Part shown: positions 27,485 through 39,365 of the stretch, in pieces | Layout: each line of letters starts with the position of its first letter | Position numbering within the stretch: the stretch's first letter is position 1 | Virus record (IMG/VR): IMGVR_UViG_3300020572_000004 | From: an uncultured virus (IMG/VR IMGVR_UViG_3300020572_000004) | Taxonomy: Duplodnaviria; Heunggongvirae; Uroviricota; Caudoviricetes | Reading direction: 5' to 3' (one strand) | DNA: 64,000 nt | Translations under genes and position numbers: made by a program | The notes under the pieces: model-generated | The model's database searches: none | The model's input: only the letters and a program-made list of their open reading frames with translations | What the model was told of the DNA's origin: nothing

Positions 27485-29017
27485 TCAAGCATATGTTTCA
27501 ATCATTCGTGACAGGTCAGCATCGCTAATCTCAACGCCGCTGGCAATAGCGCCAGCGCTCATGTTTAAGCCGCGGGATAGTTTGCGAAGGTTAGCACTTT
27601 GTTGACTCTTGCCTTTGCGCAACAGGTCAACAACGTGCTTACGTGCTTTATCATCCAGCTCAAGACCATCCTCAAGAGTAATCTTACCAACAATTTTATC
27701 CATGAAATCATAAATTTCGGCTTCAGTTGGATCAATATTGATAATGAACGCACGAGTACGCAGCGCACCATCAGGATCAAGTTTGTTTAATGGAAGGTTA
27801 CTAATAAAAATAACTTTACCTGTAAATTCAAAATAACGCGGAATCAAGCCTGCATCAAGAATTTCTTCATCGGTCATGTCATCAGGATCAACAACATTTT
27901 TACCCATTTTGTTCCACACCAACTTACGAATCTTCTTGGTATCGGTAGCGGCTTTCAACAAGTTGCGTGCTTCTTGATCACCCAATGCATCGTCGGAATC
28001 ATCAAAGAAGATGATCTTATCCTTATAGCGGAACAGCAATGAGTATAAACCTGCAGCACTAGCACTACCAGTATTCTTAAAGTAACCAGCGCCATCACGC
28101 AATCCAAGGTTGCTAAGGATTTGTTCGGTTGTATGTGTTTTACCAACACCGCCTTTACCACTGACAAACAATGCATTGGCAGAACCACTAACAGTCATTT
28201 TAACTAGATTTTCTAGGTCAAACAATTGAGCTTCAAAGGTGAGGCGCTCTTGATCGCTTTCAAGAGCGTTGATCTCTTGAGATATAACATACTTTTCTTT
28301 AGCAGAGCCACGCGTTACTTTTGCTTCAACACTGCCAGTTGCATCAAGGAGTGCACCTTGTTCTTTACGAATCTTTTCAATGTCCTTTGCCTTACCAGCC
28401 CATGTGAACTTTGTGCCAGTCTTGACAAACAGTGCAGGGTATGAGGTTTCAAGCTGATCAAAAATCTTCTGACCAGCACTCTTGTGTTTAGTATATACCT
28501 TACCCTTTGCAAAGGAAGGCTCAGTAACCATATCTAAGATATCATTAAGAATATCTACTGGGCTAGCAGCTTCAGCTAAAAAATCATAATTGAAATCTTC
28601 GTTGAGTGGCACATCATCAGGCATGGTACGAATCTTACCCAGCTCAATGCTGTTATTTTTAAGTGCATCTGCAACGAGTGGCAATACCTTAACAATACTT
28701 ACGGTCTGATCAAATTCAATGTGGAACGGAGCTGGAGTTTTACCATTCCAAAAATCAATGCTTGCAAGATTTGAATAGCCGGCTTGACTAGCACTCTTCC
28801 AGTTGAAACGCAATGAAACATTCTTTTTGCTAGAATAGAAACGCAAACCAAAACCTGCTCCATCACCGTTCTTGAATGCTTCAATACCAGGATATCTAAA
28901 CAATACAACACCGGTTTTCTTCTTTAGATATTTAGCAATTAGAAATGCTACTTTATCTGTAGACGCGTTTGAAAAGGCCTCAGCCAAATAACTTTTAAAA
29001 CTTATTACGTTTGACAT
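27485..29017 (-). CDS. AAA+/P-loop ATPase with N-terminal extension
   Basis: GKGGVGKT Walker A, IFFDDSD Walker B, IFISN, ALRTR. Confidence 0.8.
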   Translation of the reverse strand: MSNVISFKSYLAEAFSNASTDKVAFLIAKYLKKKTGVVLFRYPGIEAFKNGDGAGFGLRFYSSKKNVSLRFNWKSASQAGYSNLASIDFWNGKTPAPFHIEFDQTVSIVKVLPLVADALKNNSIELGKIRTMPDDVPLNEDFNYDFLAEAASPVDILNDILDMVTEPSFAKGKVYTKHKSAGQKIFDQLETSYPALFVKTGTKFTWAGKAKDIEKIRKEQGALLDATGSVEAKVTRGSAKEKYVISQEINALESDQERLTFEAQLFDLENLVKMTVSGSANALFVSGKGGVGKTHTTEQILSNLGLRDGAGYFKNTGSASAAGLYSLLFRYKDKIIFFDDSDDALGDQEARNLLKAATDTKKIRKLVWNKMGKNVVDPDDMTDEEILDAGLIPRYFEFTGKVIFISNLPLNKLDPDGALRTRAFIINIDPTEAEIYDFMDKIVGKITLEDGLELDDKARKHVVDLLRKGKSQQSANLRKLSRGLNMSAGAIASGVEISDADLSRMIETYA

Positions 29018-29037
29018 ATACTTTATTTATAATAAAG

Positions 29038-30219
29038 TTAAATTTTAAAATCATCAAACTTATTAGCACGACCAGCATTAGTTCGCCCTGCAGCAAAAGG
29101 AGTTTGCGGAGCAGAGTGTGAAGAGTCATCAGCCATAATATTTGCGGTAGGATCGCTCACATCATACAGTCTCATCTTTGCTAGATCAACACCAATTGTA
29201 AATCGTTTATTGGTTGTTGGATCATTGTAACGATTCTTGAGTTGCTTTACCATTATTTGATTCATCTTGTCAAGTTGTTCAGTACGAATAAATGCAATCA
29301 TCAAGTCAGCCGTTGCAGGTAGTCCAAAACTTTCGCTGGTATCCGTAATTTCAATATCTGACGATTGAAAACCCGACCGCGTAACTTGAGTTGCACTCCA
29401 GATGGGTACATTAAATTCAACAGCCAATCCACGAATCTCTTCAGCAATACTTTTGATAAGACTGTATGTATTGACGCTTCCGCTCAATCCTTTCATGCGG
29501 CTACTTGCGCAAATGTTTAGATAATCAATATAAATGATGTCAGGAACAAACTTCTTTTTCAATTTGAGTTCAAGTAGCAATGCGCGGAAGTGACCGACAT
29601 GTGCACTTGCGGTTGGATATTCTTTGACAACAAGTTTACCTTTGGTTTTATCGCTGATACCTTTGACCTTTGTATTGAATGATGCTTTAGTCAAGTCCTT
29701 CAACTGATCAATACGTACATCAAAAAGATTGGCATCAATACGCTCAGCAATCTTTTCTTCGGCCATTTCCATTGTGATATACAATACATTGCGACCTTCT
29801 GATAGTGCAGCACTAGCCATATGACACATACCCAAACTTTTTCCGCAACCAGTATTATGTGAAGAAACACCATCAGTGTAATACCGATGATTATCATGCT
29901 CAACCTGAATATCAACGATTGGAATTCGCTTTCCTGTTTTTGTAACAATACCAATTTGGTATCCATTTTCAGTTAGATACTGTTGTTTTTTAAGAACTAA
30001 ATCTTTTGCGTATTGCCATCCGTCAATGGTTTCAAACAAGTGATTTTCATTAACTCGAATAACTTTTCCACTATCAAGTAGTAAAACATATTCATCCCAG
30101 ATTCCTTTGTCAACAAATGCTGATACCGGAACAAACCCATCGGGTGAATCTACTTCTATTGTGTATCCTGCATTCAGGAGCTCTTCAATTTCTTTAATTT
30201 TAATAATTTTTTCGGTCAT
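29038..30219 (-). CDS. 41: gp41 replicative helicase C-terminal part preceded by a 122-aa split-intein C-fragment (29854-30219)
   Basis: Intein motifs NENHLF, IVDIQV and SSHN, then TGCGKS, YITMEM, IDYL, SATQ, TSESFGLPATAD, QLKNRY. Confidence 0.92.
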   Translation of the reverse strand: MTEKIIKIKEIEELLNAGYTIEVDSPDGFVPVSAFVDKGIWDEYVLLLDSGKVIRVNENHLFETIDGWQYAKDLVLKKQQYLTENGYQIGIVTKTGKRIPIVDIQVEHDNHRYYTDGVSSHNTGCGKSLGMCHMASAALSEGRNVLYITMEMAEEKIAERIDANLFDVRIDQLKDLTKASFNTKVKGISDKTKGKLVVKEYPTASAHVGHFRALLLELKLKKKFVPDIIYIDYLNICASSRMKGLSGSVNTYSLIKSIAEEIRGLAVEFNVPIWSATQVTRSGFQSSDIEITDTSESFGLPATADLMIAFIRTEQLDKMNQIMVKQLKNRYNDPTTNKRFTIGVDLAKMRLYDVSDPTANIMADDSSHSAPQTPFAAGRTNAGRANKFDDFKI

Positions 30220-30272
30220 ATAAAGGTGTGATTTGTATAAATATAATGTTAGCTGGAACAAGAATCAATCTT

Positions 30273-31088
30273 ATGAAATTTTACGCTCAAATCTATTATA
30301 ACATCTGTAATGAAAATGTAAATAACAAAATTCATTATTGTAAAGGATCAAACATACATAAGCATCATATCATTCCCCGTCATGCGGGTGGTGGAGAAGA
30401 TGAAAGTAATTTTACTTACCTTAGTATTAGACAGCATATAGCAGCACATTTCTTATTGTGGAAAATACATGGTATGGTTAATGATTTGCGATCAATGCAT
30501 ATGCTAGGAGCAAAATTAACATATGAACAAAGACGTATTGTTGGCAAATGGTGTTATGAGAATAAGATCGGAATGTTTTTAATCGGTAAGGAAGAGCGAG
30601 CTGAGATATCACGCAGAGGAATTGAGACACAAATCAAAAATAAACTAGGTATTCATAATCCAGAAAACTTTTCAAAATTTGCATCACTTGGTGGAAAAGC
30701 TTCAATAATTTCACCTAATAACCCATGGGCATATTGGGCCTCAAAGGAAGGGCAATCTGCTAGAGCACATTTGGGTGGAAAATCACACATTGGTAAATTA
30801 TGGATTCATAAAAATGATGTTATAACACGGTGTCTTAATACCGAAATTCAACAAAAAATTGATGAAGGATGGCAATATGGTATGAAAGATGGTGGAAAAG
30901 AATATGTGAATAACGGAGAGAAAACATTTAGAATTGAAACCAATAGGATATTCGGATTGCTTTTACGCGGTTGGCAATTAGGAAAAGCACCCAATTACCA
31001 ACCTGATCGCAGACGGTCTAAGAAAGAATTTTCTTATGAATCCTTACTCGAATTGGAGTCTCAGGGTGAACACAGCCTGCCAAAATAA
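30273..31088 (+). CDS. Free-standing HNH homing endonuclease inside fractured gene 41 (antisense)
   Basis: HKHHIIPRHAGG..E.SN...QHIAAHFLLWK; plus-strand TATAAATA at 30236-30243; start may be 30246. Confidence 0.88.
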   Translation: MKFYAQIYYNICNENVNNKIHYCKGSNIHKHHIIPRHAGGGEDESNFTYLSIRQHIAAHFLLWKIHGMVNDLRSMHMLGAKLTYEQRRIVGKWCYENKIGMFLIGKEERAEISRRGIETQIKNKLGIHNPENFSKFASLGGKASIISPNNPWAYWASKEGQSARAHLGGKSHIGKLWIHKNDVITRCLNTEIQQKIDEGWQYGMKDGGKEYVNNGEKTFRIETNRIFGLLLRGWQLGKAPNYQPDRRRSKKEFSYESLLELESQGEHSLPK

Positions 31089-31659
31089 TGTTGAGCGTCT
31101 TGCGAGGAATACCTCCGCCTGTAATGGTATTAAGCATTTCAAGGTCAAAGGCAATCTTATCTTCGGTCTTGTGATAAAAGTCATAGCGGCTTTCAGCATT
31201 CTCAAGATAGTCATGTCCAACATTTGTATCAAAGGTAACGCTCAATGCATTGCTAAGAATGGTTGGAATGGCGCCTTCGGTCTGATCTTTGCTTTTGCCG
31301 TCAATAATACTAACGGCTTCCATAATTGCAAGATGTACTGCGCGATCCTTACACCACTTTTCAGTGTTGTCCACTAGCCAATCATAGTCAACACTGGCAG
31401 GACTATCAATATCACGAATGCTGCTTAGCACTTCGTGATGGTCATTGCGATTAACATAGTCGCTATTTTGAAATTCAATGTCTAGGACACTGCTAGTTGG
31501 CAGCTTGTTGTACTTGCTGATAAATGACAAGATCAATTCATACAATACTTTATGCTGTCCTTCAAAGTATTCGGGTTTTAAATGAGGAAGCGCTTTGCGC
31601 GTAAACATTTCATTTTGTATCAGGTTCTTAATGATTATTTCCTCAAGATTCTTTTGCAT
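31018..31659 (-). CDS. 41: gp41 helicase N-terminal part ending in an 18-aa split-intein N-fragment (31021-31074)
   Basis: FDTNVGHDY, LNTITGGGIPRKTLNIILAG then CVHPETPIRVRIHKKILS*. Confidence 0.92.
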   Translation of the reverse strand: MQKNLEEIIIKNLIQNEMFTRKALPHLKPEYFEGQHKVLYELILSFISKYNKLPTSSVLDIEFQNSDYVNRNDHHEVLSSIRDIDSPASVDYDWLVDNTEKWCKDRAVHLAIMEAVSIIDGKSKDQTEGAIPTILSNALSVTFDTNVGHDYLENAESRYDFYHKTEDKIAFDLEMLNTITGGGIPRKTLNIILAGCVHPETPIRVRIHKKILS

Positions 31660-31951
31660 CGTTGTTTCCAATTTTAAATTCGCTTTGTGATAATAGATGA
31701 TTTAATACGTCTCCGATATGATTCTTAAATTCAGAGTCTTCGTCTAGCGATTCCTTAAGCAGCCCTTCTGGAGTGCTTTCAATCTTATAGACAAATGAAA
31801 CCTTCAAGACATCATTTTCTTTGTCCTCAGTGAGGCGGGTGCGTCCATATGTATAGATCACACCCGCCCAACGTCCAGACAATAATTTTATCGAGTATTG
31901 ATCACTATGTAAATCATTTTCGACAAAAATATAGTCTTTTTTCTCAGTCAT
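31643..31951 (-). CDS. gp40-like head vertex assembly chaperone
   Basis: Synteny uvsX-40-41 and size. Confidence 0.55.
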   Translation of the reverse strand: MTEKKDYIFVENDLHSDQYSIKLLSGRWAGVIYTYGRTRLTEDKENDVLKVSFVYKIESTPEGLLKESLDEDSEFKNHIGDVLNHLLSQSEFKIGNNDAKES

Positions 31952-32522
31952 CTGTTTGTGTATCAGGCGATTCTTCAAAGGTGATTGCACTCTCAGGAAC
32001 GCGATCAAGATCAACTTCAACGTCATTCATCATGTCGCGCAGGCCGATGGTATACTTGTTTTTGAGATATTCCGCAAAGTCAGTATTCTTAAATACAGTC
32101 TCCCAGAATTCTTTAGTCATGGTTTGAGCAGCACGCAGGTTACCAGTCAACTCAACATCCTTTGCAATGTCCCATGCTTGGTACCAACCATTCTTTGGCT
32201 TGCGAACATAGCCACCAAGAATAGCAATATCCAATAGGCCGCTCCATTTTTGAACGCCACCTTCCCAGCTTACACTGATTGGAATTTTACTTTTTTCTTT
32301 AACAAAGCGACTCTTTTCTACATTGATTACAAAGTGATAGCCTTGAATTTCAGTACCATCTTTATCTTGTTGGCGACCAATAATCCAAACATTGTCCGCA
32401 CTATACATGATGCCGGTGTTATGCGTCACAACACCATTCTTAAGAATATAGTGTTCAGCATCTTTAACGCTAAGGTCATATACTTTTTGCCGCCCTATTG
32501 ATTTAATTTCTTTAATTTTCAT
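31944..32522 (-). CDS. uvsX: UvsX C-terminal part preceded by a 35-aa split-intein C-fragment (32418-32522)
   Basis: MKIKEIKSIGRQKVYDLSV...NGVVTHN then TGIMYSAD, KSRFVKEK; own promoter at 32531-32559. Confidence 0.92.
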   Translation of the reverse strand: MKIKEIKSIGRQKVYDLSVKDAEHYILKNGVVTHNTGIMYSADNVWIIGRQQDKDGTEIQGYHFVINVEKSRFVKEKSKIPISVSWEGGVQKWSGLLDIAILGGYVRKPKNGWYQAWDIAKDVELTGNLRAAQTMTKEFWETVFKNTDFAEYLKNKYTIGLRDMMNDVEVDLDRVPESAITFEESPDTQTDD

Positions 32523-32567
32523 TATGTTATATTATAATATATTTTCTTCTGTTTGTAAAGGTCTTTT

Positions 32568-33257
32568 TTAAACGTAATTCCATTTACTCCATTGTGTATG
32601 ATCGGACTTAATTCGGCGTGATATAACGGCTCTAGTTAAATTTAAAGCATTTACGGCATCTTTAATACAGTCATACTGTATTTCGTTAATCATAATTGAT
32701 TTTGCACAAGGATTATTTCCACCAGTTCTTTCTTCTGAATATCTCTTAAATAATGCATCGTGCTTTCCTGTATTATATACATCTTGAATTTTTGTTTTTC
32801 TAATTTTTGCAGCTTCTTCAGACATGTTTAATCGTTGCTTTTTATTCATTTCTGATATTATAGACGGATCTGTATTAGATATTCTTTCTTTTACCTTTAA
32901 ACTAATGTTTTCATTTCTATTCACTATTTCTTCATCAGATAAAGATTCATACCACCCAAACCAACCTTTCCTGGTAATGCCGTCATAATCATAACCAGTT
33001 TCAGGAATTAAATTTGCCCATTCGCTACTTTCAACAACATCATATTTAGCTGAGGCTAAAACAGCGGCATTTCGCAATTCTTCTTTTGTTTGGTATGTTC
33101 CTAATAACTCAGTAAAAATATCTTTGCCATGCGTCTTTATGTGTGACTTCCAGTAATGCCCAGAACCGCTATACGATTCATAGTCATCTTTGGAAGTGAC
33201 GCACAGATATTTAAGACCTGTTATGTTATGCGTTTTTATCATCAATTTAAATGTCAT
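32568..33257 (-). CDS. Seg-like (degenerate GIY-YIG) homing endonuclease inside fractured uvsX
   Basis: KTHNITGLKYL...YSGSGHYW..H..HG...WANL..E; C-terminal NUMOD1-like HTH; TATAAATA upstream. Confidence 0.75.
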   Translation of the reverse strand: MTFKLMIKTHNITGLKYLCVTSKDDYESYSGSGHYWKSHIKTHGKDIFTELLGTYQTKEELRNAAVLASAKYDVVESSEWANLIPETGYDYDGITRKGWFGWYESLSDEEIVNRNENISLKVKERISNTDPSIISEMNKKQRLNMSEEAAKIRKTKIQDVYNTGKHDALFKRYSEERTGGNNPCAKSIMINEIQYDCIKDAVNALNLTRAVISRRIKSDHTQWSKWNYV

Positions 33258-33304
33258 AGGTATGTGTGGTTAACATACTTATTTATACAATTGACGATTT
33301 TAAC

Positions 33305-34219
33305 TTAAACCAATACTTTACAGTCTTGAGCAACCACCAAATCTTTAGCTTCAACCCATTGGTCGCCAATCATGAACTTATGGGTATCACTACAAATGAC
33401 AGTATGACCGTCTTCAAAGGTAACTTCATAGCATTCGGGCTCACCGTCTTCAAGAGTATCAGGATTCCAGACAGCAGTAACTTCCTTAGGCCCATCCAAT
33501 GTTTGAACAGTATCACCTTCAATAAAGTCTTCAACGGCTTTGGTTGTTCCATCAGGCAGAGTAATAAGAGTTCCAGCAGCAACACATCCTCCGCTAACAA
33601 TTGACTTAGGGAAAAGTCCGATCTCGAGGTAGGTATGGTTGATTGCAAGCAAGCAAATGTTTTTCATTGTAAGGTATGGCGTAACCATACGGAACAATCC
33701 TTTAAGCGCTTTAGCACGAGTCATGTCGGCAACGCTCTTTTCATTCATTGCATCTTCCAATTCTTTTTTGGATGCAAGGTTACCAACACTATCAATAACA
33801 ATAATTACCTTGTCCTTGCGCTCCATTTGCTCAAGTTGATTTACAATATCAAACTTGAGCTCTTCAATATTCTTGATAGGAATATGCAATACTCGGTTGG
33901 TGTCAATACCAAAGCTTTCGAAGTATTGCTGAGGACTACCAAATTCGCTATCATAAAACATAAGGCAAGCATCTTTATGTTTCTTAAGATATGCACCTGC
34001 CATAAGCAATGCAAAGCTGGTCTTAAAGTGCTTTGACGGACCAGCAAGAACGGTAAGGCCGCTGGTCAATCCACCGTCAATACTGCCGCTTAATGCGACA
34101 TTGACCATTGGTACACTTGTGGAGGTGATGTCTTTTTCAGCATAAAAATCGCTGTCAGCCAAGACGTCGGCTTCTTTAATTCGGCAATTCTTTTTTAGTT
34201 TTTCTAGTACAGATGACAT
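33305..34219 (-). CDS. uvsX: UvsX N-terminal part ending in a 93-aa split-intein N-fragment (33308-33586)
   Basis: AGPSKHFKT, YDSEFG, IDSVGNL, IVSGG then CVAAGTLI...CSDTHKF...W. Confidence 0.93.
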   Translation of the reverse strand: MSSVLEKLKKNCRIKEADVLADSDFYAEKDITSTSVPMVNVALSGSIDGGLTSGLTVLAGPSKHFKTSFALLMAGAYLKKHKDACLMFYDSEFGSPQQYFESFGIDTNRVLHIPIKNIEELKFDIVNQLEQMERKDKVIIVIDSVGNLASKKELEDAMNEKSVADMTRAKALKGLFRMVTPYLTMKNICLLAINHTYLEIGLFPKSIVSGGCVAAGTLITLPDGTTKAVEDFIEGDTVQTLDGPKEVTAVWNPDTLEDGEPECYEVTFEDGHTVICSDTHKFMIGDQWVEAKDLVVAQDCKVLV

Positions 34220-34241
34220 ATATTATTTCGTTGAGATATTA

Positions 34242-35513
34242 TTATAACAGGTTTTTCTTCTTCTGTAAACTAAAAAATTCATCAAGTTCATGAGAATTAT
34301 TTAGCAGCACACGTGTAGGATATTCAACCGTCTTATTCTTATTGCTTTGTTTGGTATAGTTACTTTCACTCCAAGTAACATCGCCATCAAGATACTTTAC
34401 TACATTAAGCATCATATCACGAGCTGTACTTACAGGTACATTTTGGCAGATGTGATTAATCTTGGTTTTAAGCGGGTGCAATGATGCAAGATTAAAGTCT
34501 TCAGGCATCTTCATAACACGGAGACAGTCACGTACAGTTGGAAAGCTTTGAGTAAATGGATTAATCATCCAGAATGGCAATGCTCCAATCAGACTAGGAA
34601 TAATACCTTTGACCATAGTAATGCCATGCGCCCAGTAACCCATACCTTTTGCACGTTTAGCGGCCATATCCCGAGCACGTCCTGCAGTTTTAGTATAACC
34701 ATTCGCATCCATCCATTCCGATACAACTGTAAGATTATCACCTAAGCCGCCGTCGGCCCAGACAATAAGATTCTGTGTATCATCCAGGGTGTCATATAGT
34801 TCTTTAATATCTTTAGTACCAGTCTTGTGCATGGCGTATGCAGCCCAACCATTGGTATTGGGATCATCTTCATTGCAAGAGATATTCATTGGATCACCAT
34901 CAGCATATGCCATATTAAAGATGTTTTCAATGGGTTCTCCAGGAACATTAAACCAACTAAATAGCGGAGCAGATGTACTCTTAGTAAAGAAGTAGAATGT
35001 GCGGCCGCGCTTTTGAGACAGGCCGTGAAGGCGGCTTTCAGTATAATACAAGTTTAAGCTATACCCATACTTTTCGCCGATAGCAAACAAACGGTCTGCG
35101 ACTTTTTTACCCATGTTGCTGTATAAACGTGGAGCATTCTCGCCCCAAAATACTTTAGGACCTACTTTATCAAGTACATATTCAGCGGTGGTATACAACC
35201 ATTCATTAACTGCACTATCTGCACTGCTTGCAGTGCTAAGGCTGCTCAAACCAGCACAAGGGCAGGTGGAATTTACAACATCAACCGATTCTGGTACATA
35301 ATCAGGCTGTTTGTCAAGGTGAATATAGTCACCAGTCCATCCTTTTGTGTTGCGGATGTATTGAATGTAGTGATCGTCATTGCTTGCAAAGGGACTATAT
35401 GATAATACGTATTCTGGAAGTTGTCCATCTAGTGCTTCCATGACTCCAAGTGATTCACCGCCAATAAGCGGTACGATTGATGCGTATGTGTATTTCTTTT
35501 GTGCGTTCTCCAT
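34242..35513 (-). CDS. Divergent DNA cytosine-C5 methyltransferase-like protein
   Basis: PCAGLS (motif IV), GENAP (VI), QKRGRT (VIII), ICQNVPV (X); atypical motif I IVPLIGG. Confidence 0.8.
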   Translation of the reverse strand: MENAQKKYTYASIVPLIGGESLGVMEALDGQLPEYVLSYSPFASNDDHYIQYIRNTKGWTGDYIHLDKQPDYVPESVDVVNSTCPCAGLSSLSTASSADSAVNEWLYTTAEYVLDKVGPKVFWGENAPRLYSNMGKKVADRLFAIGEKYGYSLNLYYTESRLHGLSQKRGRTFYFFTKSTSAPLFSWFNVPGEPIENIFNMAYADGDPMNISCNEDDPNTNGWAAYAMHKTGTKDIKELYDTLDDTQNLIVWADGGLGDNLTVVSEWMDANGYTKTAGRARDMAAKRAKGMGYWAHGITMVKGIIPSLIGALPFWMINPFTQSFPTVRDCLRVMKMPEDFNLASLHPLKTKINHICQNVPVSTARDMMLNVVKYLDGDVTWSESNYTKQSNKNKTVEYPTRVLLNNSHELDEFFSLQKKKNLL

Positions 35514-35521
35514 AAATTGAT

Positions 35522-36796
35522 TTATAGGACTTTGCCGGGACCCGTAATCTTATTCAATGCAGCTAGCGTAACATCATTCAAATGCTCACCAGAATAGTAT
35601 GATGGCTTTAACATAGTATCAAGAGTATCGCGCAACTTAGTATATGCGTCTGGATTACTTTCAAGATATGCAATCTTATCAAATAGGTCTTTACTGTCCT
35701 TTACACGCAAGAACTGTGGAGCATTTAAATGGTTTTGTTCATCATAAGTTGGATGCAGGAATGGTATGATTCCATAATGAGCCATCTCCCAGAACTTCAT
35801 GGTGACCCATCCTTTTTTGATAGGAATGCAATAAGTATATTTTACGCGCGGCAGCATGCTTTGCAATTCATGGAACGGTAAGCTGCCTTTAAAACGAGAG
35901 TCTGTTCCAATAGTACGCTCATCCCATTTGCCATAGATTGCTACATCTTGTACATGGTTAAGAATGGTTTCTTTCAACAGGTTGTATCGTGATGGTCGCC
36001 CCTCATTGAGAACAATCATAAAGTTGATGTCTTTTATACCAGCCGGCTCTGGTATGTCTTCACCAAAGAATGTATCCAACGACGAAGTTTCCGTTTCGGC
36101 GCTTTGCTTTTCTTTATCTTGTCCAATAAGAAAGATGGTTTCCATTGCACTATAGGTACTGGGAATGGTGTGCACTACCGTTTCATTGTCTGTATAGTTT
36201 TTACGAACTGTTACACGCGTATCTTCATCATATTGTGACAAGACAATGGTTGGCATATGAATCCAATCGCGTGCATTAGGAGGCCAGAAGCGTGGATCAT
36301 TTACAATGAGAATGTATGGGATGTGGCGATTATCATTCATCCAATCCGTCATGGGTGCAACATATTTGCATAACATTTCAAGAGGACTTGCAACCTCACT
36401 AGGGTTACGCATTTTGGTAACCTTAAATGGAATGTTGGTAGTACCGGTTGGACCAGTAAATACAACACCAGCATCAAACTTTACATGATTGAGTGCAACA
36501 TATTCTTTAAGGTATTCTATATTGTGTAATTTACTGTCCATTGGATTGTTCTTTTTCCAATCCACAAACTGCTTACCCCAAATGTCAACCACATTACCAT
36601 TCGCATTGATGCGTTGCTTTTCGCTGCTGCTTAGACGTGAAAAGTCATTGCAACCCAACAGGTAAAATGTAATGCTAGGATTACGCGCAAATAGGTTTTC
36701 ATAATACTTGGGCGCTTCGCAGTCACCGCCAATATTCCCCCATGAATTGCGATTAAACAATATGCTCTTGCCAATCTTTCCTACATATACATTCAT
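35522..36796 (-). CDS. DNA glycosyltransferase, T4 beta-glucosyltransferase-like (GT-B)
   Basis: NDPRF, VTMKFWE, YDEQNHL, FLRVKDSKDLFDKIAYL resemble recalled T4 Bgt segments; operon context. Confidence 0.72.
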   Translation of the reverse strand: MNVYVGKIGKSILFNRNSWGNIGGDCEAPKYYENLFARNPSITFYLLGCNDFSRLSSSEKQRINANGNVVDIWGKQFVDWKKNNPMDSKLHNIEYLKEYVALNHVKFDAGVVFTGPTGTTNIPFKVTKMRNPSEVASPLEMLCKYVAPMTDWMNDNRHIPYILIVNDPRFWPPNARDWIHMPTIVLSQYDEDTRVTVRKNYTDNETVVHTIPSTYSAMETIFLIGQDKEKQSAETETSSLDTFFGEDIPEPAGIKDINFMIVLNEGRPSRYNLLKETILNHVQDVAIYGKWDERTIGTDSRFKGSLPFHELQSMLPRVKYTYCIPIKKGWVTMKFWEMAHYGIIPFLHPTYDEQNHLNAPQFLRVKDSKDLFDKIAYLESNPDAYTKLRDTLDTMLKPSYYSGEHLNDVTLAALNKITGPGKVL

Positions 36797-36797
36797 A

Positions 36798-37817
36798 TTA
36801 TCCAATCTTAACGCTGTCGGTATTCAAGTCAACCATGTAGGTTAGAGGATCAATGGCGCCTCGCTCAATTTCTTTTTCAAGATAGGCAATTGTATCATCA
36901 AGTGCAGTTGAGATACTTTTCTTTGGGCACCAGCCAAGCGAGAGCGCCTTGCGAATATCCGCAAATATTTCAAATGCTTCACCGTTGATTTCCGGCATAA
37001 AGGTATATTCTACTGCATCTGGCACTTCATATCCACGCGCTTTAAGTACACCTGCAACAGCATCACCAATTTCAAATAGGCTACAACTTTGTCCACGCCC
37101 AAGATTGTATGTTTGGCCAATAGTGCGATCATCGGTTAAGCATTGAACGTGAAAAGCATTCACGTCATCAACATGAATAAAGTCCCTACGACGTTGGCCA
37201 TCGCCGAAGATGATTGGGTTGTTACCTCCCATCATGCGAATAGCAAAGCCGGCAAACAGTGGAGGCACAGTGCGCTTGTAGTCTTGAATAGGCCCTGCAA
37301 TATTAAAGTAACGCAATGCAGTATAGCGCAATCCTTTGGTGCGTGCATAACTTTCAGCAAGCAATGCAACAGCTGCTTTAGTGCTTGCATACACTGTAGT
37401 AGGATCGCTTTGGCCTTCAAAATAACCATCTTGTAGCAGCTCACAATTTTCATATACTGCACTCGTCTCAGAGAAAACAACGCGTGGGCAACCGGCTGCA
37501 AGCAGTGCATCAAATACATTTACACTACCAACAATGTTGTTGTCAACCGCACTTGATGGGTCACGATGGCAATCATAAATGCTAACCAAGCCTGCAAAGT
37601 GAAAAGTAATGTCAGGTTTGATATTGCCAATGTGTAAATGCATTGCTTCACGGTCACGAATATCGCATTTGAAAAAACGGACACGATCATGCACTTCAGG
37701 GATATATGAGCCGTGCGCAAGATTGTCAATTACAATCACATCATGCCCTAGTTCTAACAAATTAGGAATAAGATTTGTTCCGACGAAGCCGCAGCCTCCA
37801 GTAATAAGTATCTTCAT
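36798..37817 (-). CDS. NAD-dependent nucleotide-sugar epimerase/dehydratase (SDR)
   Basis: ITGGCGFVG, YASTK, LRYFN, GDG.QRRDFIHV. Confidence 0.93.
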   Translation of the reverse strand: MKILITGGCGFVGTNLIPNLLELGHDVIVIDNLAHGSYIPEVHDRVRFFKCDIRDREAMHLHIGNIKPDITFHFAGLVSIYDCHRDPSSAVDNNIVGSVNVFDALLAAGCPRVVFSETSAVYENCELLQDGYFEGQSDPTTVYASTKAAVALLAESYARTKGLRYTALRYFNIAGPIQDYKRTVPPLFAGFAIRMMGGNNPIIFGDGQRRRDFIHVDDVNAFHVQCLTDDRTIGQTYNLGRGQSCSLFEIGDAVAGVLKARGYEVPDAVEYTFMPEINGEAFEIFADIRKALSLGWCPKKSISTALDDTIAYLEKEIERGAIDPLTYMVDLNTDSVKIG

Positions 37818-37833
37818 AGAGTTATATATGTGG

Positions 37834-38289
37834 TTAATTTTTCTTTGCAATGACGCGCGATCTCAATTCACTTGTAGAGAAACTGTGTCTTCTTTTGTTG
37901 TAATGGATTGGGCAAAGGTCTTTTCCGGTGTGATTGGTACCTTGGTATTCCTCGCCAACAATGCGCACATCAGGATTGATTGTAAGAATCATATCTTCCA
38001 GATCCTTTTCGGTTTCAAAGGGAATAATTTCGTCCACATATTTGCATGCTGATACTTGTAGGTATCGCTCAAATACACTTTGAACTGGTGCGTTCTTTGT
38101 ATCAGCACGATCCTTTGTGGGATCAACCAATAATCCTACAATTAGATAGTCACACAATTGTTTTGCTTCCATAAGCATTACTGTGTGGCCAGCATGAAAG
38201 AGATCGAAGGTGGAACAGCTGAAACCAATTATAACCTCGGTTACATCTTTATTTAGTTTTTTTGCTATTTCTTTTTTATTAATGTACAT
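37834..38289 (-). CDS. TagD/HldE-like cytidylyltransferase
   Basis: STFDLFHAGH, LIVGL, ERY, VGEEY, FSTSELR. Confidence 0.9.
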   Translation of the reverse strand: MYINKKEIAKKLNKDVTEVIIGFSCSTFDLFHAGHTVMLMEAKQLCDYLIVGLLVDPTKDRADTKNAPVQSVFERYLQVSACKYVDEIIPFETEKDLEDMILTINPDVRIVGEEYQGTNHTGKDLCPIHYNKRRHSFSTSELRSRVIAKKN

Positions 38290-38300
38290 ATTTCTGGTTT

Positions 38301-39365
38301 TTATCTAGTTGTGTATATTGTTTGTCTGGCAGCATTGATTTTATTTTTTAAGTATTGTAATAGATATTCTTTGTCATTCGCATATGGATACATTCTACAA
38401 AGATGACCAATCTCATGAGCCTTAAGAACTTCGACCGGCACCAATCCACTATTTTCAATAAGTTGAAGTGAAGAATCAGACGAGTCGTTCAAAGCAATTG
38501 TAGTATATAGTTTGGCAATGTCAATGACCCATGAACTATATAGTGTGATGTCATTGATTGGATCAATAAAACAAATGCTTTGACCAGTACTATCATTACT
38601 CATAATGTTACTGATGCTGCAATCTCCATGACTAAAGGATGTTGGTGTATACCACATCGCGCCATTAAGCAGAATATAGATGAAACTATAGTCGCCAATA
38701 TACAGCAGGTCCTTAACGCGTTCACGACAGCGTGAAATATATGAATCGGCGCTAACAGGTTCAGATTGCAGAGGCGGATGAGAAGCGAAGGTATGAACGG
38801 TTTCCAGCACGTCGGTTATGTCACCACTGTATGTATGCAAATATTGCATACGAATAGTATCACCAATAACACTATGCACTCCTGGGACATTATAACCATA
38901 CCATCGCGCGGCCTCAAACCATCGCACAACACTCTGTGTATTTTTTGATGTCTTGTAGACGCTGTCTGTCACTTTATCATAATACACAGAGTCACCACTC
39001 CAACCGCCAACCAATCTTGTGCGCTCAAAGCTTTTAACAAATTGTTCTGGTGTAATACCTTTGTCATCAATGTAGTATGCTGCAAGCTTCTTTTGGAAGC
39101 TAAGCGAGCTATACTTTACGTCATGCTGAGTTAGCCAGCTCTCAATTTGTGCTCTGTACTTGAGATCGGCCGCTTCACAATCACCATTACATGAGAGTTG
39201 ACCTCGTGCGGTAACAATATGAATGCTCCAGCCATCATCACATAAAGCATTGAGTTTGTTGACAAGCGCAACATTTGGCATTGCATTTACCCAATCACGA
39301 TTGTGAGTAATAGCAATGGTATCATCAAAGTCAACAACAAGAGTGGTTGTATAGTCTGAAATCAT
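38301..39365 (-). CDS. HAD phosphatase fused to an APH/choline-kinase-like phosphotransferase
   Basis: N-terminal VDFDDT, TARG, K, YIDDK; C-terminal HGDCSISNI, FIDP, DIAK. Confidence 0.85.
   Translation of the reverse strand: MISDYTTTLVVDFDDTIAITHNRDWVNAMPNVALVNKLNALCDDGWSIHIVTARGQLSCNGDCEAADLKYRAQIESWLTQHDVKYSSLSFQKKLAAYYIDDKGITPEQFVKSFERTRLVGGWSGDSVYYDKVTDSVYKTSKNTQSVVRWFEAARWYGYNVPGVHSVIGDTIRMQYLHTYSGDITDVLETVHTFASHPPLQSEPVSADSYISRCRERVKDLLYIGDYSFIYILLNGAMWYTPTSFSHGDCSISNIMSNDSTGQSICFIDPINDITLYSSWVIDIAKLYTTIALNDSSDSSLQLIENSGLVPVEVLKAHEIGHLCRMYPYANDKEYLLQYLKNKINAARQTIYTTR

Follow-up and report, generated by a model that had tools for sequence, protein, structure and literature searches.

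Genes fractured by split inteins were described in phages by Dassa, London, Stoddard, Schueler-Furman and Pietrokovski in 2009 (PMC2677866). In these "fractured genes" a phage DNA-metabolism gene is cut by a split intein, a free-standing endonuclease lies between the halves and is preceded by the late box TATAAATA, and the intein halves carry opposite charges. All three coding regions lie on one strand, the nucleases are of the GIY-YIG or Vsr-like type, gp41 is among the hosts but UvsX is not, one atypical terminase split has an IntC of 122 aa, and a nuclease-less split allele, gp41-7, exists (PMC2677866). A second relevant system is the atypically split intein VidaL (PDB 6VGV/6VGW; 16-aa IntN), for which the S1 split site was described (PMC13014065). 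Split UvsX inteins also occur in cultured T4-like phages; in one of these, Yersinia phage vB_YenM_TG1 (KP202158), uvsX consists of two ORFs around a GIY-YIG gene and is followed by an intact helicase gene (gene 41); the annotation does not name an intein.

The DNA analyzed here, a window of 64,000 nucleotides, comes from an uncultured T4-like lake phage whose record spans 133 kb (74% complete). Its helicase gene (gp41) and its recombinase gene (uvsX) are each broken by a different split intein around a nuclease gene (Table 1). The original prediction of two real split inteins within 5 kb holds, and all the features it gave are present in the sequence: a gp41 intein of 18+122 aa with a basic IntN, a UvsX intein of 93+35 aa with an acidic IntN and a Lys-rich IntC start, and Cys1, Asn and Thr+1 in both. 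Most likely, these co-resident inteins are selfish elements of the type already described in 2009 that met by chance, and not a tuned pair, and each set of gene halves is likely to rejoin as protein without mixing between the inteins. The nuclease genes inside both breaks and a third split intein of the genome, a Cat-like one in terL outside the window, were not part of that prediction. A genome-wide IntC search (simple motif pattern plus Pfam) found these three, each with a split site of its own (VidaL-type in the gp41 intein, canonical in that of UvsX and Cat-type in that of TerL). Within a literature search that had few subscription papers within reach, no description of a single phage genome with several distinct split inteins was found.

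Table 1. Features of the uvsX and gene 41 loci (window coordinates; a slash marks a splice junction).
Feature	Position	Strand	Evidence or remark
sigma70-type promoter motif TTTACA-N17-TATAAT before uvsX-N	34241..34269	-	motif match
UvsX N-precursor	33305-34219	-	ends ...SGG/C, then IntN
UvsX N-extein, 211 aa	33587..34219	-	RecA PF00154, E 1.1e-10
UvsX IntN, 93 aa, Cys1, canonical split	33308..33586	-	5 K/R, 20 D/E, net -15
T4 late promoter box TATAAATA before GIY-YIG gene	33280..33287	-	motif named in PMC2677866
GIY-YIG nuclease gene within uvsX break	32568..33257	-	SegE GIY-YIG, E 0.016; I-TevI DNA-binding, E 1.1e-5; phrog_314, E 2.1e-10
sigma70-type promoter motif before UvsX IntC	32531..32559	-	motif match
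UvsX C-precursor, begins with IntC	31944-32522	-	starts MKIKEIKS...
UvsX IntC, 35 aa, net +3, ends His-Asn	32418..32522	-	PF14890, E 2.1e-5; junction VTHN/TGIMYS
UvsX C-extein, 157 aa, Thr+1	31944..32417	-	T4_UVSX_C, E 9.6e-11
91-aa ORF between uvsX and gene 41	31643..31918	-	phrog_3998, E 5.8e-8
gp41 N-precursor	31018-31659	-	ends ...NIILAG/C, then IntN
gp41 N-extein, 195 aa from ATG, ends inside Walker A	31075..31659	-	phrog_19, E 3.7e-43
gp41 IntN, 18 aa, Cys1	31021..31074	-	4 K/R, 1 D/E, net +3
Antisense HNH-type putative homing endonuclease, 271 aa (280 aa from ATG 30246)	30273..31088	+	PF01844, E 0.0064 (under cut-off); phrog_655, E 2.3e-13
sigma70-type promoter motif for gp41 IntC, within HNH coding sequence	30295..30322	-	motif match
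T4 late promoter box (TATAAATA) for antisense HNH gene	30236..30243	+	motif match
gp41 IntC, 122 aa, net -7, VidaL-like, ends His-Asn	29854..30219	-	C-precursor start ATG 30219; junction SSHN/TGCGKS
gp41 C-extein, 271 aa, Thr+1 of Walker A motif	29038..29853	-	DnaB_C, E 8.1e-15

As in fractured genes, both loci have a free-standing endonuclease ORF that separates the intein halves, a late box ahead of the nuclease gene and opposite charges on the halves. The uvsX locus also has all three coding regions on one strand. At gene 41, in contrast, the nuclease is an HNH type lying antisense (as in 23/23 split relative loci), and therefore this gene is filed as a variant of the fractured gene. Its layout is compact: the C-terminal HNH codons overlap the whole IntN on the opposite strand, and the HNH gene supplies the IntC promoter motif. 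The IntC has the length of that of the atypical terminase split. The insertion lies in Walker A, whereas the site of gp41-1 to gp41-7 is residue 356 of P-SSM2 gp41 (PMC2677866); Dassa Table S1 may give further sites, for gp41-8 and gp41-9, that could make the Walker A site a known one. For the gp41 C-precursor, a TG start at 30261 was dropped in favor of ATG 30219 because the latter is common to close relatives.

Both inteins have the residues of class 1 split (Hint) inteins, namely Cys1, terminal His-Asn and Thr+1, and there are Pfam Hint/intein matches, each under the curated cut-off. These matches, the PDB match to VidaL and the exact joining of uninterrupted genes at the two junctions speak against a chance resemblance. 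In block B, S-x-x-H is invariant in 18/18 aligned UvsX inteins, with Ser at the Thr position of T-x-x-H; in the gp41 inteins the His is invariant and the Thr position is Asn in 17/17, and VidaL also lacks Thr there. Empty alleles (L037, L038, L042) read through both junctions, removal of the inteins restores the host proteins exactly, and natural unsplit homologues span both halves of the Hint fold. VidaL is the closest intein to that of gp41 by sequence and fold: it is the best sequence match of the gp41 IntC (PDB, E 6.9e-12) and the top fold match of L018, an unsplit homologue (E 3.4e-12, TM 0.87, 28% identity; pLDDT 94.9). The L018 fold is an alignment-based model and stands for the gp41-type intein; a single-sequence fold without the first three residues (pLDDT 43) was discarded. 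The gp41 IntN ends after strand 2, as at the S1 site, and its length falls in the range of VidaL-type atypical splits (IntN about 15-18 aa; one relative has 16 aa). It differs from VidaL by its about 28% identity, its 18-aa IntN and its Thr+1, where the VidaL crystal construct continues Ser-Gly. Neugebauer 2017, the original VidaL paper, reportedly mentions two inteins of the same source, one in a T4-like helicase and one in UvsX. The UvsX IntN is 59% identical to that of phage TG1, and among the best 30 of 83 records in its search, 25 are UvsX/RecA-type (47-59% identity).

The sigma70-type motif has 17 matches in the window versus 0.11 expected, and the same box stands ahead of uvsX-N, the UvsX IntC and the gp41 IntC. 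The UvsX-IntC promoter is also likely to serve the 91-aa ORF and gp41-N. The gp41-IntC motif holds its position in 20/20 split loci with a 796/798-nt gap; its exact pattern was not found in three distant split loci. Co-expression of gp41 and UvsX, which had been put forward as seen, is not visible in the sequence, and we infer it from the common promoter motif. In four RNA runs, only 0.06-0.16 of the words were present. In fractured genes an RNA hairpin accompanies the late promoter of the nuclease; here the GIY-YIG gene is preceded by a weak hairpin (-5.4 kcal/mol, z -0.74) and the HNH gene by none, and translational hairpins did not exceed shuffles. Alternatively, the genes could be rejoined at the RNA level, by intron splicing or ribosomal bypass, with the inteins acting in cis, as the unsplit versions of both inteins (L018, L080) might suggest. 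However, the 798-nt and 782-nt gaps are nearly filled by the nuclease ORFs and both IntC reading frames come with a separate start and promoter motif, which makes this explanation extremely unlikely. A group I intron or other RNA element was rejected, since an Rfam scan of 29000-34400 returned no intron and, as its sole match, a snoRNA under the cut-off (E 0.12).

Purifying selection holds for three of the four intein halves (dN/dS 0.07-0.15 for UvsX IntN, 0.02-0.06 for UvsX IntC and 0.06-0.11 for gp41 IntC). The gp41 IntN is the exception, with 1.4-1.9 on 54 nt in 3/5 comparisons and identity in the other two, a value confounded by double coding with the HNH gene. Both nuclease genes also have low ratios (GIY-YIG 0.13-0.15, HNH 0.12-0.17). 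No second gp41 or uvsX copy was found in the 133-kb, 74%-complete record. Together with the selected split inteins this suggests that the genome likely needs trans-splicing for both proteins, in support of the proposed dependence of replication and recombination. It was also proposed that trans-splicing is a post-translational control point, retained as a switch responsive to redox, metal or temperature. Both insertions do lie in conserved ATPase-domain motifs and use Cys1, a role as sensors has been argued for inteins (PMC4760082), and split alleles persist without a nuclease (L257, L261, L079, L086, L088). Selfish elements are equally expected at conserved sites, however, and we found no regulatory feature. 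Moreover, the phages without either or both cassettes (L037, L038, L042) are near-identical and have uninterrupted genes, and a single run can contain both filled and empty alleles. In lake run X2, contigs with the cassette are accompanied by one that joins across the gp41 cassette, and run X20 has one that joins across the uvsX cassette. There is thus no sign of such a control point, and a switch is very improbable.

Relatives suggest that the two cassettes spread independently. In 66 related contigs with both genes callable, split gp41 alone occurs in 13, split UvsX alone in 35 and both in one, which is identical to the window. Where uvsX is intact, the gp41 IntN has 18 aa in 13/13 contigs (net +3 in 12, +6 in one); where gene 41 is intact, the UvsX IntN has a net charge of -10 to -16 in 34 of the 35 contigs (one row is mis-registered). 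This polarity also appears in unsplit homologues (L018 +2/-10, L035 +4/-10, L080 -13/+4). The gp41 IntN DNA of the window matches that of L015 (uvsX intact) in every nucleotide, as its UvsX IntC DNA does that of L054 (gene 41 intact). In an extein-only sample (49/80 contigs callable, collapsed to 28 haplotypes) one double split was seen versus 1.07 expected (Fisher p 1.0), and in a second sample (68/80 callable) one versus 0.74 (p 0.56). Double carriers appeared depleted on raw contigs (p 0.027-0.14), with one versus 3.7 expected in the uncollapsed extein-only sample (p 0.075) and fewer under a narrower pattern in 37 close contigs (p 0.027), but this vanishes after collapsing near-identical contigs; the raw shortage could reflect a cost of carrying both cassettes. 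In a tree built from the exteins of 20 chosen loci, split alleles are sister to empty ones in five well-supported separate groups and the window groups with L038 (98% DNA identity), a pattern that repeated loss would explain as well as repeated gain. The 796/798-nt gp41 cassette occurs in N-exteins that are 68-100% identical. L018 may be either an ancestral unsplit form or a re-fused split allele: it groups with split L007 (96% IntC DNA identity; support 89-90/91-96), but trees constrained to unite the split alleles also passed the test (p-AU 0.11, 0.22), and its linker did not match the HNH gene (best 14-16 of 26).

The two inteins were originally read as a natural pair whose split points and charges were shaped, or filtered, to avoid cross-splicing. 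Both cross pairs are indeed like-charged (+3/+3, -15/-7), the genome's three split inteins differ in split site, and raw counts show few double carriers. However, single carriers show the same split points and charges and unsplit homologues the same charge polarity, the intein DNA is shared with single carriers, and collapsed counts agree with independence, so that neither the excess co-occurrence nor the double-carrier-specific traits of a co-evolved pair were found. In addition, 15/16 unrelated inteins proved orthogonal without shared history (Pinto 2020; PMC7090010). Shaping is therefore unlikely. A differing split point alone does not block cross-splicing either, since CL and CLm, a single intein split at two sites, cross-splice (PMC12707363). 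Cross-splicing between gp41 and UvsX still appears unlikely, as one of the cross pairs would be missing most of the fold and the other brings together like charges at about 23% identity; what lacks support is a tuned origin of the differences. Against orthogonality, the cross-signals that did arise in Pinto 2020 came mostly from short atypical fragments. Judged from these sequences, orthogonality is likely but incidental. A complex prediction of gp41 IntC with UvsX IntN (score 0.01, verdict "no answer") was counted neither way. It is also doubtful, though conceivable, that orthogonality filters homing, a cassette settling only where resident split inteins cannot pair with it; on that reading the filter would account for three split inteins at three split sites, and multi-intein phage genomes would be pre-screened sources of mutually orthogonal sets.

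The gp41 and UvsX cassettes are separate split-intein/nuclease units, and most probably each was dispersed by homing on its own and the two came together here by coincidence. This is favored because close relatives hold either cassette alone with the same features, and because layout, late boxes and homing model match those of fractured genes (PMC2677866). Three promoters of a single class would drive the four precursors, and cognate pairs would trans-splice via Cys1, the block-B His, the terminal Asn and Thr+1 into a 466-aa gp41 and a 368-aa UvsX. During late infection, the nucleases would each cleave empty alleles in co-infecting phages, which would then receive a copy of the entire cassette. 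The predicted lack of cross-splicing, which follows from distant homologues with mismatched halves, would be a by-product of separate ancestry and not of mutual adaptation.

A ready-made orthogonal tool pair was also proposed, but tools of this kind are available as VidaL/Cfa pairs and as orthogonal sets of 15 members. Engineered sets (Pinto 2020, PMC7090010; VidaL/Cfa and Cat/Cfa, PMC11185735) likewise bring an atypical and a canonical split intein together, and such pairs are already in use; they are characterized tools, whereas the gp41/UvsX pair is a predicted one in a single natural genome. Useful instead is a putative VidaL-type intein with a synthesis-friendly N-half of 18 aa, Thr+1 and natural variants including an unsplit form. 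Biologically, two selfish cassettes of a known type in one genome are ordinary. However, empty, unsplit, split and nuclease-less alleles are all present in one family, and a phage group in which every stage postulated in 2009 is represented (empty, unsplit mini-intein, split with and without nuclease) makes homing of an entire split cassette and possible re-fusion directly testable.

The source record, a linear sequence of 133,067 bases rated 74% complete (the window being its bases 1-64000), has a T4-like gene set and contains no second copy of gp41-C or uvsX-N. Re-reading of the sequence bore out the lengths, charges and junctions originally predicted for the split inteins of the helicase gp41 (18+122 aa, charges +3/-7) and the recombinase UvsX (93+35 aa, -15/+3), both with Cys1, a His-Asn end and Thr+1. 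The gp41 break lies within Walker A. Uninterrupted genes in relatives continue directly across both junctions, and in one intein-free locus (L038) the gp41 exteins are 100% protein-identical to those of the window over the matched parts.

Gene order at the split gp41 and uvsX loci (window coordinates)
Feature	Position	Strand	Match
uvsX-N + IntN	33305-34219	minus	
229-aa ORF, presumed homing endonuclease of the GIY-YIG type	between uvsX halves	minus	phrog_314, E 2e-10
IntC + uvsX-C	31944-32522	minus	
91-aa ORF	between uvsX-C and gp41-N	minus	
gp41-N + IntN	31018-31659	minus	
271/280-aa ORF, HNH-type putative homing endonuclease	between gp41 halves	plus	phrog_655, E 2e-13
IntC + gp41-C	29038-30219	minus	

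Candidate homing endonuclease genes, absent from the original prediction, fill both gaps, and a TATAAATA late box precedes each of them (GIY-YIG in uvsX, HNH in gene 41). The layout of both loci is that of the 'fractured gene' described by Dassa 2009 (PMC2677866). Unlike the arrangement described there, the HNH gene runs antisense at all 23 split gp41 loci compared in relatives, and the gene 41 locus is therefore a variant of this layout. The final HNH codons cover the entire 18-aa gp41 IntN, and the gp41 IntC promoter motif is situated within the HNH gene. A split PolB intein with an HNH gene inside was reported previously (PMC6892783). One split gp41 allele (L257:75-170) has lost the HNH gene through a deletion between two 9-nt repeats; the IntN is now 20 aa long and the IntC promoter motif is gone. 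A single UvsX intein lineage carries differing nucleases (229 aa in the window vs 292 aa in the related locus L054). Comparison of the uvsX loci L018, L050 and L054 revealed, besides this nuclease swap in the window's lineage, another intein lineage occupying this same uvsX site, which ends in Ser-Asn and has a different nuclease.

Intein-led scans yielded 103 loci on 99 contigs, with both genes callable in 66. Only gp41 was split in 13 of these, only UvsX in 35, neither gene was interrupted in 11, and both were split in a single contig (L006, which matches the window exactly); unsplit gp41 inteins accompanied a split UvsX in two and an intact UvsX in three, and one unsplit UvsX intein accompanied an intact gp41. 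Extein-only scans were run as well, to avoid ascertainment by the intein queries. Among the best 80 of 114 matches to the gp41 N-extein, 49 were callable (both split 1, gp41 only 13, UvsX only 12, neither 23), with one double carrier vs 3.7 expected (p = 0.075, uncollapsed); collapsed to 28 haplotypes (1/5/4/18 in the same order), 1.07 were expected (p = 1.0). The best 80 of 595 matches to the UvsX C-extein gave 68 callable contigs (1/4/9/54; 0.74 expected, p = 0.56). Depletion of double carriers reached p = 0.027 in 37 close contigs, uncollapsed, and no double-split locus was present among the 11 both-site-callable of 18 loci added by a metagenome scan. Hence, this depletion is at most a weak, unstable hint, and co-occurrence of the cassettes is not enriched. 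The IntN measures 18 aa in 13/13 gp41-only carriers and has a net charge of -10 to -16 in 34/35 UvsX-only carriers (the remaining row is mis-registered); the charge polarity is already present in unsplit homologues. With split and charge unchanged in single carriers and no enrichment, the proposed natural pair was not upheld.

Cross-splicing between gp41 and UvsX appears unlikely, because gp41 IntN and UvsX IntC, mapped on unsplit homologues, leave out the central part of the domain, block-B His included, and thus cannot form a Hint fold, and because UvsX IntN and gp41 IntC duplicate about 70 columns at 23% identity and are both acidic. Orthogonality is the usual state: PMC7090010 found it for 15 of 16 distinct inteins and observed cross-signal mostly with short atypical fragments. 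According to PMC12707363, cross-splicing does occur when a single intein is split at two sites, so it is probably divergence, and not the differing split points that had been proposed, that would keep the two inteins apart. Existing tool pairs include VidaL/Cfa and Cat/Cfa (PMC11185735).

The top match of gp41 IntC is VidaL (6VGV; E 6.9e-12), which is also the best match (TM 0.87) of the fold predicted for a natural unsplit gp41 homologue (L018; pLDDT 94.9). The break after strand 2 coincides with the site reported for VidaL (PMC13014065). A further split gp41 intein (L261:699-1870) is without nuclease and has an IntN of 16 aa, the VidaL length. IntN lengths of 15-37 aa are on record. An unsplit gp41 mini-intein of 136 aa (L018/L019:7944-8351), whose IntC DNA is 96% identical to that of the split locus L007 and which shares 32/33 nt at the IntN start, could be either an HNH target or a re-fused allele. 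In Pseudomonas jumbo phages (L109:2938-4209; NC_071039, PA5oct), an intein related to the gp41/VidaL type (42% identity) occupies a gene resembling uvsX; therefore, this family is found in more than one host gene. The UvsX intein has a canonical split, and related alleles occur in cultured phages, among them TG1, whose gap contains a GIY-YIG gene and whose helicase is uninterrupted. Since terL is likewise split, outside the window (genome 84120-85465; G000:C1:83037-85975; L003), the genome harbors three split inteins, not two. The terL IntN (~34 aa) forms an in-frame fusion with a GIY-YIG domain, and a TATAAATA box lies within the IntN codons; the 102-aa IntC, with Cys+1, is nearest to Cat (6DSL; E 2.4e-10).

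Judged by dN/dS between the window and close relatives, gp41 IntC (0.06-0.11, five pairs), UvsX IntN (0.07-0.15, three pairs), UvsX IntC (0.02 and 0.06, a third pair being identical), HNH (0.12-0.17, five pairs) and GIY-YIG (0.13-0.15, two pairs) are under purifying selection. For gp41 IntN the ratio was 1.4-1.9 in three pairs, with two pairs unchanged, and is uninformative, as only 54 doubly coded bases are involved.

The motif TTTACA-N16/17-TATAAT, which we take to be a sigma70 promoter, occurs 17 times in the window (0.11 expected), and three copies precede uvsX-N, UvsX IntC and gp41 IntC. This shared motif supports the suggestion that the split gp41 and UvsX precursors may be co-expressed. 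No Shine-Dalgarno motifs were found at gene starts in window 29038-34219. The UvsX IntC start lies only 8 nt behind the TATAAT box (window 32522-32559), which suggests a nearly leaderless mRNA. Inteins were argued to be possible sensors (PMC4760082). Nothing here favored splicing as a post-translational control point, as had been considered, and phages that are almost identical do well in the absence of the cassettes. The upstream block (window 34242-39365) contains a gene similar to C5 DNA methylases (PF00145, E 4.7e-11) and ORFs resembling, by eye, nucleotide-sugar epimerase and nucleotidyltransferase, and is possibly a DNA-modification cluster.

In a gp41 extein DNA tree of 20 chosen loci, split alleles are sister to empty ones in five separate supported groups, and the N-exteins hosting the same gp41 cassette are 68% to 100% identical. 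Freshwater or lake DNA accounts for 20/24 runs among those listed, with 0.47-1.00 of words (one is possibly the source run). Four runs were examined: one (X2) contained cassette contigs together with a contig joining across the gp41 site, another (X20) a contig joining across the uvsX site, and a third (X6) contigs over each of the two cassettes. None of the four runs had a piece that spanned both sites. Recurrent loss would fit this distribution as well as recurrent gain through homing. The gp41 and uvsX cassettes are most likely two independent selfish elements of a known kind.
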